64,000 nucleotides of DNA from an uncultured Ectothiorhodospiraceae bacterium (GTDB taxonomy: Bacteria; Pseudomonadota; Gammaproteobacteria; UBA9214), in NCBI GenBank assembly GCA_964443845.1, contig CAYUFA010000001.1:47025-111024 (forward strand), written 5' to 3'. The translations under genes were made by a program, and so were the position numbers. This document shows positions 29,384-41,578 of the stretch, piece after piece (positions within the stretch are counted from its first letter, which is position 1; each line of letters starts with the position of its first letter). Under the pieces are notes generated by a model, which was given only the letters and a program-made list of their open reading frames with translations, was not told the origin of the DNA and did not search any database.

Positions 29384-30136
29384 TCAGTCAAGGTAGCGCG
29401 CCTGCCATTCCAGGAACCTGGCGTGCGCCCAGGCAGCGTAGGATTCCCTGTCGCTGAAAGCGGCGGGGTCGAAGGGATCGTAGATATAGAAATTGACGCG
29501 GTTATTGCCCGTGGTACTCATGTGCCAGATCTTGTGCAGCAGTGTCTGCGGGTCGCGCCACTCGAAATCGTCCTGAGACTCGTAGTGCAGGAACACGGGC
29601 AGTATCGGAATCCCGGTGCGCAGCGAAATATCGAATGCGCCGTACCGGAACGTCTCGAATATGCGTCTGCCCTTGCAGCCACCCTCGGGGTAGAGCGCGA
29701 TATTCTTGCCACTGCGCAACTCGCGGTCGATTGCGTCCGCCGCGGCATTGCGGGACTCTTTCGATTCCCGGTGTACGTACAGGGTGCCGGCCGCCATGCT
29801 GATCCGGCCAACGAGCCACCAGTCCTGCACCTCGATCTTGGCCAGGGAATGCACGGGAAACACGGCGGGTATCCCGATATCCTCGAATGCGGAGGGATGA
29901 TTGGCGATCAGGATGTACTGCTCCGGCAGGCCCTTGCAGGTGTATTTCTGGTGCACGCGCAGGTCGATACCCAGCGCGCGCACGAAACTGCGCGACCAGA
30001 ACCGGAACAACGTGAAATAAAACGACCTGGTCAACGCACGTGGCAGCCAGGAGAGCAGGTACATCACCAGCGTGAACACACCCAGCTCGATCCAGCACCA
30101 CAGGCGCCAGGCAACCCTGCATACGAACCGGATCAA
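29384..30136 (-). CDS. Lysophospholipid/1-acyl-sn-glycerol-3-phosphate acyltransferase family (PlsC-like) membrane protein
   Basis: NHPSAFEDI (HX4D-type acyltransferase motif) and ALYPEGG (PEG motif) are present, with an N-terminal TM. Confidence 0.75.
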   Translation of the reverse strand: MIRFVCRVAWRLWCWIELGVFTLVMYLLSWLPRALTRSFYFTLFRFWSRSFVRALGIDLRVHQKYTCKGLPEQYILIANHPSAFEDIGIPAVFPVHSLAKIEVQDWWLVGRISMAAGTLYVHRESKESRNAAADAIDRELRSGKNIALYPEGGCKGRRIFETFRYGAFDISLRTGIPILPVFLHYESQDDFEWRDPQTLLHKIWHMSTTGNNRVNFYIYDPFDPAAFSDRESYAAWAHARFLEWQARYLD

Positions 30137-30225
30137 GGATCCACTCCTGCCACCTGAATTTCACCCCATTATGACCCCTTGTCGGCCAGCCGGGAAAGAT
30201 TTACAGGTGGAACCTGCCGGCACGT

Positions 30226-31044
30226 TCAGTGAATTTCCGCCAGCAGCTGCGCGATCACCGTGCCATCGGCCGGCTCCAGCCCGTGCGGGGCAGGCAGCGT
30301 GACCAGCCTGGACCGGCCACGCAGCACAGGCACGTTGTTCATGTCCTGGCTGTAGGCAGGCACGACGTAGTCTCCGGGACCGTTGGAGGCCCGTACCACG
30401 GAAACATACTGGATATCCGGATGCGGCTGGCTGTTCAGCCAGTACAGGAAGGTCCCGGGTCGTGCCCGGACGAGGTCAACGTACAGGCTGCGCGAACGCA
30501 TGGCCGTGTGATAGGTGCTGCCGCCCAGGAAATCGGTCAGCAGCGACAACGGGAACGGGATATCGGTGGCATCGAGCGCCTCTTCCGCCCGGCCGGTGCC
30601 GAGGTGCGGACTGGCGATCGTGACCAGCGCCTTCACGTTGGTGGCGCCACCGCGGACCAGCGCAGCCCGCGCCACCACGCCGCCGGCAGAGTGCCCGACC
30701 AGGACGATCGGTTCCGCCGGATGCCTGGCGGTGATCGATGCCAGGATCTCCTTCAGCAGGTACACCTGGACCAGGATCGGTGCCTCGGACGGCAGGTCGA
30801 CGGAATAGAACTTGTCCTTGCCCGTTGCGCCCTGCCCGGGGACCAGCCGGATGCCACCCGGTCCGGCAAGATAGACGCCGGCCGGCTGCCAGCCCTGCTG
30901 TTGCAGGATCGAGGTGACACCACTGCGATCCCAGGATCCCGCATCCCCCAGGTAGCCATGGACCAGCAATACCACCTCTGCACGCGCCAGCTGCGACAGC
31001 AGCGCAGTGCACAGCGCCAGTACCAACAGTACACTCTTCTTCAT
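30226..31044 (-). CDS. Secreted alpha/beta-hydrolase, lipase/esterase-like
   Basis: The signal peptide MKKSVLLVLALCTALLSQLARA precedes VVLLVHGYLG...IVLVGHSAGG (nucleophile elbow GHSAG). Confidence 0.75.
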   Translation of the reverse strand: MKKSVLLVLALCTALLSQLARAEVVLLVHGYLGDAGSWDRSGVTSILQQQGWQPAGVYLAGPGGIRLVPGQGATGKDKFYSVDLPSEAPILVQVYLLKEILASITARHPAEPIVLVGHSAGGVVARAALVRGGATNVKALVTIASPHLGTGRAEEALDATDIPFPLSLLTDFLGGSTYHTAMRSRSLYVDLVRARPGTFLYWLNSQPHPDIQYVSVVRASNGPGDYVVPAYSQDMNNVPVLRGRSRLVTLPAPHGLEPADGTVIAQLLAEIH

Positions 31045-31622
31045 AACCCACCTGCCTTGTTCATCGCGGTTGCTCCGATTGCCCGGCACCGACAGCGCGC
31101 AAGCAACGCACTTCCTGCCCGCTGCGCTTCTCCCGGTTGCCGTACCACTGCCACCCACCCCCGCTACATGACACAGAGTCAGCTCCCGGCCGGTAGCACC
31201 TGGCAGACAGGACACGGTCTCCAACCCTGGCGCACGTGCAACCCTCAGCCGCTGCCCGGCCGTAGAAGAGCGGTCTGGCAGGGACGATGTCTAGTATATT
31301 AGAAAATGCTTAAATACTCAACTGATGGCCCGTCCCGCCACCGGTACGGCGCTCTCTGCATTTGTTTTTGCCTTTACATGAACTTAGCGATGGATTATTA
31401 CCCAAAACCGATCCGTCAAAACAATGGCTTAGCGTCGGCGTCCCGGTGTATCGTGATATTTATATATTAAACAGTGTGTTATGAGTTGACGCGCGAGTGC
31501 GGAAAAAATAATTTTAGCGCCTTTTGAATATATAAAAATTACCCGATTCCGATATACCTGCATTATCAGCCCCCTACACACGCCCGCCGGAAACCCCCCG
31601 AATTTCCGTCAATCAATTGTGG

Positions 31623-39509: not shown

Positions 39510-39531
39510 GTTCGGTTGCCAGGATCCCGCC

Positions 39532-40347
39532 ATGCAAGCAGACCCGGTAATGGTTCCCGCTCCCCGCCACTATCGCGCAATCTGGCTGTCGGACATTCAC
39601 CTCGGCACCCGCGGCTGCAAGGCCGACTTCCTGCTGGATTTCCTGCGTCACACCGAGTCCGATTATCTCTACCTGGCCGGCGACATCATCGATGGCTGGG
39701 CGCTGCGCCGCTCCTGGTACTGGGACCAGAAACACAATGACGTGCTGCAGAAAATCATGCGCAAGGCGCGCAGGGGCACACGGGTCATCTATATTCCGGG
39801 CAACCACGACGAATTTGCGCGTGGCTATACCGGCCACCTGTTCGGCGGCATCGCGGTCGTGGAACACGCCGTCCATGAACTGGATGACGGGCGCCGGCTG
39901 CTGGTCCTGCATGGTGACGAATTCGACGGCGTCGTACGCCACGCGCGCTGGCTGGCAATACTCGGTGACCTGGCCTACAAGGCGGCACTGGCCCTCAACC
40001 ACTGGCTGCACGGCATCCGGCGCCGCATGGGATACCCCTACTGGTCCCTGTCCGCCTACCTCAAGCACCGGGTGAAAAATGCCGTGCAGTTCATCGATGA
40101 TTTCGAACACCTGGTCGCGCGCGAGGCCCGCCTGCACGGGGTGGACGGCGTGGTCTGCGGCCACATCCACAAGGCCGGGCTCCGGGAAATCGACGGCCTG
40201 CTGTACTGCAACGACGGTGACTGGGTGGAGAGTTGCACGGCGCTCGTCGAAACCCGTGACGGCCGGCTTGAGATCCTGCACTGGACGGATGCCGGCAACC
40301 GCGTGCTGGCCAGCAGCAACGTCCCGCAACCGGCCGCCGCCGCCTGA
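39532..40347 (+). CDS. LpxH/PlcP-like calcineurin-type metallophosphoesterase (candidate phospholipase-C-like lipid-remodelling enzyme)
   Basis: AIWLSDIHLG, GDIIDGW, GNHD, LHGDEFDG, GHIH are present. It sits directly upstream of a GT4 glycosyltransferase. An alternative start is at 39550. Confidence 0.75.
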   Translation: MQADPVMVPAPRHYRAIWLSDIHLGTRGCKADFLLDFLRHTESDYLYLAGDIIDGWALRRSWYWDQKHNDVLQKIMRKARRGTRVIYIPGNHDEFARGYTGHLFGGIAVVEHAVHELDDGRRLLVLHGDEFDGVVRHARWLAILGDLAYKAALALNHWLHGIRRRMGYPYWSLSAYLKHRVKNAVQFIDDFEHLVAREARLHGVDGVVCGHIHKAGLREIDGLLYCNDGDWVESCTALVETRDGRLEILHWTDAGNRVLASSNVPQPAAAA

Positions 40348-40378
40348 CCAGGCCAGGACACCATCCGCCGGGGGATCC

Positions 40379-41578
40379 ATGAACATCCTGATGATATCCG
40401 ACGTGTACTTTCCCAGGGTGAACGGGGTGTCCACCTCGATCGCCACGTTCCGGCAGCAGTTGCGCGCTGCCGGCCACCGGGTATGTCTGATCGTTCCGGA
40501 CTACGGACACGCGCACGGTGACGATCCCGATGTCATCCGCATTCCCTCCCGCCGCCTGTGGATGGACCCGGAAGACCGCATGATGCGGCCGCATGCCGTC
40601 CAGGCCCTCGCAGCGGAGCTGCGCGAACGCCGTTTCGACCTGGTGCACATCCAGACCCCGTTCATCGCGCACCGGGTCGGGTTACGGCTGGCAAAACACC
40701 TGGGATTGCCGGTGCTGGAAACCTGTCACACCTATTTCGAGGAATACCTGTATCACTACATCCCGTTTCTCCCGCGCGCGCTGATGCAGGCAGCGGCACG
40801 TCATTTCACCCGCGTACAGTGCAACCGCCTCGATGCCGTGGTCGTGCCGTCGCGGGCCATGCAGGACGTGTTGCGGGAATACGGCGTAAGCACTCCTGCA
40901 TCGATCATTCCCACCGGCCTGCAACTGGAGGAGCTCAGCGGCGGCTCGCGCGCGCGTTTCCGGCAGGCGCACGGCATCGCTGCCGCACAGCCGGTACTGG
41001 TGCACGTAGGCCGGGTGGCCCATGAAAAGAACATCGAATTCCTGCTCGACGTCCTGCTTACGCTGCGGGAACGGTTCGCCGACATCCTGCTGGTGATCGC
41101 CGGCGAAGGCCCGGCCCGCAAGTCGCTGCAGGCGCGCGTGGACCGGGAAGACCTGCAGCCCCAGGTCCTGTTCGTTGACTACCTGCCGCGCGGCGAACCA
41201 CTCTGGGACTGCTACTGTGCCGGGGACGTTTTCGTGTTCGCATCGGCCACGGAAACCCAGGGGCTGGTGCTGCTCGAGGCCATGGCGCTGGGTGTTCCCG
41301 TGGTCTCGACGGCCTTCATGGGCACCCGCGACATCCTGCTGGGCGGCCGCGGCTGCCTGGTCGCGGAGCCGGCGGTCGGAGACTTTGCCGGGAAAGTGGC
41401 CCGTCTGCTGGAGCAGCCCGCGTTGCGCGCCCGGCTGGCACGGGAGGCACGCGGGTACGCCGCCGAGTGGACGGCCGAAACCACCACGGCACAACTGCTC
41501 GCATACTACACGGCGCTGGTCCCGCCGTCCGCGCCACACAGGCCGGCGGCACGGGGGCCGCTGTCCGCCATCCCCTGA
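40379..41578 (+). CDS. GT4 glycosyltransferase (candidate glycosyl-diacylglycerol synthase, Agt-like)
   Basis: MNILMISDVYFPRVNGVSTSIATF...HVGRVAHEKNIEFLL...GDVFVFASATETQGLVLLEAMALGVPVV. Confidence 0.8.
   Translation: MNILMISDVYFPRVNGVSTSIATFRQQLRAAGHRVCLIVPDYGHAHGDDPDVIRIPSRRLWMDPEDRMMRPHAVQALAAELRERRFDLVHIQTPFIAHRVGLRLAKHLGLPVLETCHTYFEEYLYHYIPFLPRALMQAAARHFTRVQCNRLDAVVVPSRAMQDVLREYGVSTPASIIPTGLQLEELSGGSRARFRQAHGIAAAQPVLVHVGRVAHEKNIEFLLDVLLTLRERFADILLVIAGEGPARKSLQARVDREDLQPQVLFVDYLPRGEPLWDCYCAGDVFVFASATETQGLVLLEAMALGVPVVSTAFMGTRDILLGGRGCLVAEPAVGDFAGKVARLLEQPALRARLAREARGYAAEWTAETTTAQLLAYYTALVPPSAPHRPAARGPLSAIP

Follow-up and report, generated by a model that had tools for sequence, protein, structure and literature searches.

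Within a 64,000-nucleotide stretch of DNA from an uncultured Ectothiorhodospiraceae bacterium (hereafter the window), five neighbouring genes at positions 37155-41578 probably form a PlcP-Agt-type locus for membrane lipid renovation under promoters of the PhoB type, in which phospholipids would be exchanged for phosphorus-free glycolipids when phosphate is limiting. The genes encode a predicted phospholipase C (PlcP), two glycosyltransferases of family GT4 (GT4-A and GT4-B), a lipid phosphatase of the PAP2 family and a diacylglycerol kinase (DgkA). The window has a G+C content of about 64%, and its sequence matches contigs of an uncultured proteobacterium from salt-marsh and sediment metagenomes. 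The gene map is one on which codon-position G+C, translation, Pfam, NCBIfam and independent JGI gene calls on the identical contig all agreed, and it gives the following genes for the core of the locus.

37155-38201, minus strand: GT4-B, a putative Agt-clade diacylglycerol (DAG) glycosyltransferase of 348 amino acids (GT4 Pfam domains).
38391-38945, plus strand: PAP2-family integral-membrane lipid phosphatase of 184 amino acids (PF01569, 81.5 bits).
39025-39414, minus strand: DgkA, prokaryotic diacylglycerol kinase of 129 amino acids (PF01219, 117.6 bits).
39532-40347, plus strand: PlcP, a predicted phospholipase C of the metallophosphoesterase type, 271 amino acids (Pfam, NCBIfam).
40379-41578, plus strand: GT4-A, a second, alMGS-like putative lipid glycosyltransferase of 399 amino acids (Pfam).

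This five-gene layout, with GT4-B and DgkA on the minus strand and PAP2, PlcP and then GT4-A on the plus strand, is kept in six other lineages (L172, L005, L090, L007, L008 and L169; names of this form denote comparison loci), in which the flanking genes differ. Where it was measured, the PlcP of these lineages is 72-79% identical to that of the window. A preliminary description of the same DNA had proposed one dense lipid-remodelling module of 12 kb (29384-41578) with nine lipid genes. All nine are present at or near the positions given there (Pfam, NCBIfam, JGI gene calls) and the inclusion of DgkA and PAP2 is borne out by their synteny in the six other lineages; judged by conserved gene order, however, the functional unit is the 4.4-kb core and not the 12-kb stretch.

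The metallophosphoesterase at 39532-40347 matches PF00149 and PF12850 and carries the metal-binding motifs SDIH, GDIID, GNHDE, LHGD and CGHIH, which are invariant among 14 homologues. It belongs to a family with more than 8000 matches, in which identity is about 70% even to Magnetospirillum and which annotation pipelines label ‘LpxH’. This public label is probably misleading, as the protein falls far below the LpxH equivalog models (34.9 bits against a cutoff of 190.35 for TIGR01854, and 32.5 against 134 for NF003743) and reaches only 31 bits against the Pseudomonas aeruginosa LpxH structure 5b49. Searches of the Protein Data Bank with PlcP, PAP2 and GT4-A returned only distant matches that gave no functional resolution. 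Window proteins were compared by tblastn with at least 160 loci from species genomes and metagenomes. In nearly all of them a GT4 gene comes next after the plcP homologue, and often DgkA after that. PlcP of the window shares 61-64% identity with the first gene product of the plcP-agt-dgkA operons in Burkholderia dolosa (L061), Burkholderia sp. BCC0506 (L072) and B. latens (L077), and the three-gene unit of these genomes matches the B. cenocepacia operon plcP-agt-dagK (BCAL2364-2366), which is phosphate-starvation induced and whose plcP is required for glycolipid formation (bioRxiv 10.1101/2023.05.30.542800). Orthologues within the cepacia complex are reported to be more than 84% identical to the PlcP of strain K56-2 (bioRxiv 10.1101/2023.05.30.542800), and the window protein is tied to experiment through the cepacia-complex genomes and this preprint. 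Its own surroundings likewise link it to glycolipid genes, with GT4-A immediately 3′ and the Agt orthologue GT4-B 1.3 kb upstream. We therefore assign the protein, on sequence grounds, as PlcP and not LpxH, with a predicted phospholipase C activity. The earlier proposal of two metallophosphoesterases in the system holds for this one alone; the other, at 32494-33489, is YaeI/LpxG-like and lies outside the unit.

The two glycosyltransferases are different in kind. GT4-B is 50-62% identical to the GT4 encoded directly 3′ of plcP in at least 110 other loci (57% in the Burkholderia plcP-agt-dgkA operons), and outside the window’s own lineage it is the counterpart of the plcP-following GT4 in most of the 160 or more loci; GT4-A was the best match in none of these outside loci. 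The Agt/GTcp clade is characterised by the motifs GRVAxEKN and FPSxTDTFG, the latter with an Asp replacing the usual Glu of GT4 enzymes, together with a catalytic His (PMC8231724). GT4-B carries GRIAVEKN, FPSLTDTFG with the diagnostic Asp, and SYHTQF, which places it in this clade. GT4-A has GRVAHEKN but FASATETQG, with the ordinary GT4 Glu, and is outside the clade by this motif; it is 31% identical to GT4-B. The top NCBIfam match of GT4-A is the alpha-monoglucosyl-DAG synthase NF049988 (128.4 bits over residues 2-310, where the cutoff is 400). Its homologues bear the KEGG-style JGI name ‘1,2-diacylglycerol 3-alpha-glucosyltransferase’, and genes of its type also show linkage to PlcP-like genes under other layouts (L169, L170 and L171). 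It begins 31 bp after plcP and is probably co-transcribed with it. Since GT4-B is of the Agt clade while GT4-A is alMGS-like, the locus combines one PlcP with two different lipid-type GT4s. By sequence the divergent GT4-B is the canonical Agt orthologue, with monoglucosyl-DAG (MGlc-DAG) and/or glucuronosyl-DAG (GlcA-DAG) as its predicted product, and GT4-A would probably make MGlc-DAG or a second species. The adjacent metallophosphoesterase-GT4 pair had been taken in the preliminary description as the PlcP-Agt pair itself. A renovation system of that type is indeed what the genes resemble, and comparison of the GT4s with those that follow plcP elsewhere gave the orthology expected of it, with the qualification that the orthologue is the divergent GT4-B and not the adjacent GT4-A.

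The intergenic regions of the core contain repeats that we interpret as PhoB-type boxes. As a yardstick we took the 250-bp regions that precede plcP in 80 unrelated genomes: the pattern CTGTCAYN4CTGTCAY, matched at 12 or more of its 14 positions, is present on the coding strand of 24 of the 80 regions, on the reverse strand of 3, and in none of the 80 after shuffling. A half-site matrix was then derived from the plcP Pho boxes of unrelated alpha- and betaproteobacteria and scored as four half-sites at 11-bp phasing. The predicted elements in the core are listed below, with spacers in lower case.

38251-38290, minus strand: predicted double Pho box facing GT4-B, GCGTAAC cgtc CGGTCAT gaat ATGCAAT caaa CTGTCAC.
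38235-38240, minus strand: −10-like hexamer GATACT, putative GT4-B promoter, 10 bp downstream of the array.
38306-38345, plus strand: predicted double Pho box facing PAP2, CTGTCAC gaaa AATACAC acaa CCGTCAT cgaa TCGTTGC.
38356-38361, plus strand: −10-like hexamer CACAGT, putative PAP2 promoter, 10 bp after the array.
39492-39525, plus strand: predicted plcP promoter, consisting of the 18-mer GTGTAGC aaaa CCGTCAC (39492-39509), 10 bp, the hexamer CAGGAT (39520-39525), 6 nt and the ATG.
39440-39446: AGTGTAC block, candidate −10 of dgkA (TACACT on the minus strand).

Scanning the genome with a PhoB matrix had been suggested beforehand; the window and the related loci were scanned. The two arrays between GT4-B and PAP2 rank first and second of 127,922 window positions, with scores of 17.6 and 15.7; the next independent site scores 3.2. 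Array scores across the window have a mean of −48.7 and a standard deviation of 11.9, which puts the two arrays about 5.5 standard deviations above the mean. The equivalent of the GT4-B array ranks first in each of six related loci (L005, L007, L008, L172, L090 and L169), the equivalent of the PAP2 array ranks second in four of them (L005, L007, L008 and L172), and no block of the intergenic alignment is better conserved than the PAP2 array. Each array is oriented toward its gene and ends exactly 10 bp before a −10-like hexamer. For GT4-B a hexamer of the form nAnAnT occurs at equal spacing in all seven lineages (GATACT in three, then GAGAAT, AAGAAT, AAGACT and AAGAAT), and for PAP2 a CAnnnT hexamer occurs at equal spacing in five. 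No sigma-70 promoter with −35 and −10 elements was found in 37000-41800.

The classical PhoB-dependent architecture is that of Escherichia coli pstS, from whose promoter the 10-bp spacing rule is taken. Both arrays share this layout, with phased direct repeats, orientation toward the gene, 10 bp to the −10 and no −35 found, and we predict that they are PhoB-type boxes. A search of the 64-kb window for pst and pho genes, phoBR included, that might have supplied a Pho box specific to the organism found none. As a positive control, the half-site matrix picked out the pstS promoter of L174, and top-ranking sites precede homologous genes in the independent layouts L170, L174 and L091 too. A conserved TGGCA downstream of the PAP2 array was also considered as part of a sigma-54 promoter and was rejected, the TTGC element at −12 being present in no lineage. 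L090 has a second very strong phased array (1626-1665, minus strand, score 20.5) just past the 3′ end of GT4-B. It is flanked by convergent genes, one of them for a FadD-like acyl-CoA ligase, and there is no obvious gene downstream.

Upstream of plcP the 18-mer lies at −40 from the ATG in six of seven lineages, of which L090, L169 and L172 match strongly, and the combined Fisher p for the −40 site is about 2e-8 over six lineages, which are related and not independent. Across lineages the box is followed by 10 bp, a YAGnnT hexamer, 6-7 nt and the ATG. Read as a Shine-Dalgarno sequence, the hexamer CAGGAT fits L007 and L008 (AGGAG and AGGTG) but not L005, L169 and L172 (TAGCAT, TAGCGT and TACGAT), and we prefer, weakly, to read it as a −10. 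Because of this layout of box, 10 bp, hexamer, 6-7 nt and ATG, the plcP-GT4-A mRNA may be leaderless or nearly so, a suggestion that we also hold weakly. The columns of the AGTGTAC block before dgkA are invariant in a four-lineage alignment, and with six lineages aligned a single base change in L090 (AGTCTAC) is the sole exception. Both intergenic regions had previously been noted for PhoB-box-like repeats; the GT4/PAP2 region stands up by position, phasing and conservation, while the site at 39492-39509 is weak alone yet positionally conserved.

The PAP2 protein has all the catalytic motifs of its superfamily (pattern KX6RP, PSGH, SRX5HX3D), present as KLLSGRERP, PSGH and SRMVLGLHYPSD. It scores below every NCBIfam subfamily cutoff (SepP 50.9 against 250, PgpB 39.6 against 261, UppP 29.3 against 229 and LpxE 24 against 177), and its relatives in the Protein Data Bank are distant, at 31 bits or less, and include LpxE and PgpB at about 30 bits. 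In DgkA, residues 21-121 match all 102 positions of the PF01219 profile, and the protein is 47-54% identical to the third gene product of plcP-agt-dgkA operons in Burkholderia, Cupriavidus and Paraburkholderia.

The association of PAP2 orthologues with GT4 genes recurs in L170, L173 and L174. In L170 (6144-10033) PlcP, GT4-A, a third GT4 type and PAP2 are on one strand; the third GT4 is 34% identical to GT4-B, its gene overlaps that of PAP2, and the gap between GT4-A and this third GT4, directly before the GT4-PAP2 pair, holds the top Pho-like site of L170. L173 has the divergent GT4-B and PAP2 pair without PlcP. In L174 (3279-10531, Nitrosomonadales metagenome-assembled genome GCA_016716325.1) a DgkA-GT4-PAP2 operon stands beside a Zn-dependent phospholipase C (PF00882), phoU and pstSCA, and the top-ranking Pho-like arrays precede the phospholipase C, pstS and GT4-PAP2. 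This looks like a lipid renovation locus in which a different phospholipase family replaces PlcP. There are at least four layouts, namely that of the window, PlcP-GT4-A-GT4-PAP2, divergent GT4 and PAP2 alone, and DgkA-GT4-PAP2 beside a Zn-phospholipase C and pstSCA-phoU, and this recurrence may point to a mobile two-gene unit that could team with different phospholipases.

The most economical and most likely reading of PAP2 is a phosphatidate phosphatase that would feed DAG to a glycosyltransferase; undecaprenyl diphosphate, phosphatidylglycerol phosphate or lipid A are possible substrates. A literature search for PAP2 together with PlcP returned no bacterial paper that links them. We put forward only tentatively the idea that the GT4-PAP2 pairing is an unrecognised, Pho-regulated arm of lipid renovation, in which PAP2 would either divert newly made phosphatidate to DAG or strip phosphate from lipid A or phosphatidylglycerol phosphate. 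In the first version the cell could build phosphorus-free membrane without making phospholipid first, and DgkA would be the opposing valve; in the second, PAP2 would be an extra phosphate-salvage step on lipid A or phosphatidylglycerol phosphate.

Taken together, the genes and promoters could operate as follows. Under phosphate limitation phosphorylated PhoB would bind tandem Pho boxes that replace the −35 elements of three promoters, those of GT4-B, PAP2 and plcP-GT4-A. PlcP would cleave phospholipids into DAG and a phospho-headgroup, the phosphate of which would be recycled, and GT4-B and GT4-A would convert the DAG into phosphorus-free glycolipids. PAP2 would convert phosphatidate into DAG, opening a de novo route to glycolipid and releasing more phosphate, and DgkA would return surplus DAG to phosphatidate and so buffer the DAG pool.

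Several points weigh against this interpretation. The host is an uncultured organism represented by a metagenome-assembled genome, and the locus is known from its sequence alone. The 18-mer before plcP is weak within the window, ranking 87th with an 18-mer matrix and 21st of 39,966 with the half-site matrix, and because the lineages are related the conservation statistics overstate their independence. No Pho-like array faces dgkA, and if PAP2 and DgkA were active at once they would drive a futile cycle between phosphatidate and DAG. One PAP2 orthologue (L175) stands alone, without lipid-gene neighbours. PAP2 enzymes often act on undecaprenyl diphosphate, phosphatidylglycerol phosphate or lipid A, with active sites in the periplasm, and regulators of the OmpR family other than PhoB also bind direct repeats phased at 10-11 bp.

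Some of these points would suit an envelope-modification cluster, acting on lipid A, lipopolysaccharide or the undecaprenyl-phosphate cycle, under another OmpR-family regulator such as one of the PhoP/PmrA type. The signal would then be Mg2+, pH or antimicrobial peptides, PAP2 would be a phosphatase of the LpxE/UppP type and the GT4s would use acceptors other than DAG. Such a cluster would be consistent with the weak matches of PAP2 to SepP, UppP, PgpB and LpxE, with the generic nature of 11-bp-phased repeats in the OmpR family, with the PhoP/PhoQ-like two-component system just upstream of the L170 cluster, and with public names, PlcP homologues being called LpxH and PAP2 homologues being labelled undecaprenyl-diphosphatase by JGI, although the latter name is probably misleading as well. 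We nevertheless consider it unlikely, as PlcP fails the LpxH models by a wide margin and GT4-B has the motifs of the DAG-glycosyltransferase clade and is orthologous to the agt of phosphate-starvation-induced operons. The regulatory evidence points the same way: the half-site matrix, built from a Pho consensus of the CTGTCAT type, also finds pstS in L174, where the GT4-PAP2 operon adjoins phoU and pstSCA.

Slightly less probable again is that the whole 12-kb stretch forms one extended lipid-remodelling module in which four upstream genes are co-regulated with the core. These genes, and those that separate them from it, are as follows.

29384-30136, minus strand: PlsC-like acyltransferase (PF01553, 69 bits).
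30226-31044, minus strand: alpha/beta-hydrolase ‘lipase’ with a signal peptide (Pfam).
32031-32522, plus strand: CarS-like protein of the CDP-archaeol-synthase family (PF01864, 52 bits).
32494-33489, minus strand: YaeI/LpxG-like metallophosphoesterase (Pfam, NCBIfam).
33.8-36.7 kb: hypothetical protein of 74 amino acids, glutaredoxin, DUF1820, two hypothetical proteins and MsrA (JGI gene calls).

All genes of such a module are lipid-related by Pfam, the full arrangement is found again in the closest relative, L172, and in six betaproteobacterial loci (L038, L130, L142, L148, L160 and L168) a PlsC-like gene is divergently upstream of plcP. There is also a Pho-like 18-mer, CTGCCACCTGAATTTCAC, at 30147-30164 on the plus strand between the PlsC-like and lipase genes, fifth-ranked in the window; both flanking genes run on the other strand, and the site is probably a chance match. 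Against a single module, unrelated genes (glutaredoxin, DUF1820, MsrA) fill about 3.3 kb between the two parts, and the four upstream genes keep their synteny with the core in L172 alone, being absent from that position in L005, L007, L008, L090 and L169, all of which retain the core. No correctly oriented Pho-like site was found near any of the four, nor is there a high-scoring phased array near them, and the CarS-like and YaeI-like genes are convergent with overlapping 3′ ends and therefore do not form an operon. From this restricted linkage and the lack of a correctly oriented site we treat the four as neighbours by descent, outside the system. The elaborate module with a second metallophosphoesterase and CarS that had been envisaged is thus not one unit; the lipid enzymes that made the cluster appear dense are real, but they are split in two by housekeeping genes.

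Two observations on these upstream genes may be recorded separately. The convergent CarS-like and YaeI-like pair (32031-33489) overlaps by about 29 bp and recurs in L172, and it is not near the core in more distant relatives. The acyltransferases beside plcP-agt-dgkA in the six betaproteobacterial loci are 23-29% identical to the PlsC-like protein of the window, and an acyltransferase may be a genuine accessory of the system in those lineages.

That the arrays are non-regulatory, arising by chance or shared ancestry before constitutive genes, is very improbable: CTGTCAC shows no enrichment over the whole window (10 copies, where 8.5 are expected, 3 of the 10 inside 38251-38369), the plcP site alone is at chance level and the conservation among seven related lineages is partly inherited, but the two arrays stand far above the next independent site, their half-sites have diverged yet phasing, orientation and 10-bp spacing are kept in intergenic regions with a mean column identity of about 60%, and the independent layouts L170, L174 and L091 have top-ranking sites before homologous genes.

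A PhoB-type-regulated PlcP-Agt locus, the reading that we prefer, belongs to a known type of system (PMC4796936), and plcP is present in all proteobacterial methanotrophs (PMC9239053). Among the closest described systems is the B. cenocepacia plcP-agt-dagK operon, which contains the same three families; the identities of the window proteins to their counterparts in L061, L072 and L077 are 61-64% for PlcP, 57% for GT4-B and 47-48% for DgkA, and these Burkholderia loci also have Pho boxes upstream of plcP. The Burkholderia genes form a single three-gene operon, whereas in the window agt and dgkA run the other way, from putative promoters of their own, PAP2 and a second, alMGS-like GT4 are added, and dgkA has no recognisable Pho box. 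In P. aeruginosa PlcP (PA3219) works with Agt1 (PA3218), encoded beside plcP and producing monoglucosyldiacylglycerol (MGDG), and with the unlinked Agt2 (PA0842), producing glucuronic acid diacylglycerol (GADG) (PMC8528852). By its published description that system is similar in having one PlcP and two GT4s, one of them directly 3′ of plcP, with Pho boxes before both units; it differs in that Agt2 is at a distant locus, while both GT4s of the window are within 4.4 kb, and in that no PAP2 or DgkA is described there (PMC8528852).

In the alphaproteobacterial and SAR11 systems (Sinorhizobium meliloti, Phaeobacter MED193, Pelagibacter HTCC7211 and the Agt of Agrobacterium tumefaciens; PMC4796936, PMC8231724) a Pho box precedes plcP, and an Agt-clade GT4 follows it directly. 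Their Agt resembles GT4-B in the motifs GRVAxEKN and FPSxTDTFG and in length (334 amino acids against 348), but they are two-gene units with a single multifunctional Agt, whereas the Agt-clade gene of the window is divergent and not 3′ of plcP. The Acholeplasma laidlawii-type alMGS (NF049988) is the top NCBIfam match of GT4-A, at a score so far under the equivalog cutoff that it is a distant relative only. In plastids and cyanobacteria, phosphatidate phosphatases of the PAP2 type feed DAG to galactolipid synthases. The pairing of PAP2 with a DAG glycosyltransferase proposed here for the window, L170, L173 and L174 would resemble these in its predicted function. The preliminary description had supposed the arrangement to be undescribed, and this novelty was overstated, given that two Agts with one PlcP (PMC8528852) and a phosphate-starvation-induced plcP-agt-dagK operon (bioRxiv 10.1101/2023.05.30.542800) were already known. 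What is new here is the split, divergent promoter layout, the alMGS-like GT4 directly 3′ of plcP and the recurrent GT4-PAP2 pairing preceded by Pho boxes.

Outside the core, a 190-residue secreted protein and a thioredoxin-fold protein (AhpC/TSA-Redoxin) are encoded downstream of GT4-A (41712-42814, plus strand) and are syntenic in most relatives. The pair is absent from the short L090 locus and the 190-residue protein was not detected in L008; in L007, L008 and L169 inserted HbpS-like and DUF1028 genes separate the pair from GT4-A. These genes are probably outside the lipid unit. Genes for polyphosphate kinase (ppk, in L007 only) and for a SixA-like histidine phosphatase (in L007 and L008) precede glutaredoxin-DUF1820 (L007:1-1755, L008:1880-2401), and every lineage has a second His_Phos_1 gene 3′ of the core (43028-43504 in the window). 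Further away, 61800-64000 has a G+C content of 0.54 against about 0.65 elsewhere and encodes, as read from the translations, an NhaA-like Na+/H+ antiporter (61828-63198, minus strand) and a cation-diffusion-facilitator-like protein (63301-63915, minus strand); horizontal acquisition is possible. An open reading frame of 809 codons at 6913-9342 (plus strand) has a strong coding signal (G+C of 0.82 at third codon positions) and no Pfam match at E<=1e-5; it is found among flagellar genes (fliF, fliD, flagellin) beside a 695-residue protein with a methyltransferase domain. An Rfam scan of the whole window found no RNA family.

The exchange of phospholipids for glycolipids is a major phosphorus economy of bacteria, documented in the oceans, in methanotrophs and in infection by P. 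aeruginosa and Burkholderia, and it alters susceptibility to antibiotics and phages. The locus described here introduces no new principle, and the pathway itself will not surprise a specialist. What it would bring together, in one unit of an uncultured sediment lineage of gammaproteobacteria, are the enzymes of the DAG node, namely a phospholipase C, two DAG glycosyltransferases, a DAG kinase and a PAP2 phosphatase, with three predicted PhoB-type promoters and a separately transcribed dgkA. The GT4-PAP2 pair is a testable lead, and it may reveal the phosphatidate phosphatase step that is still missing from the de novo route to glycolipid in Gram-negative bacteria.

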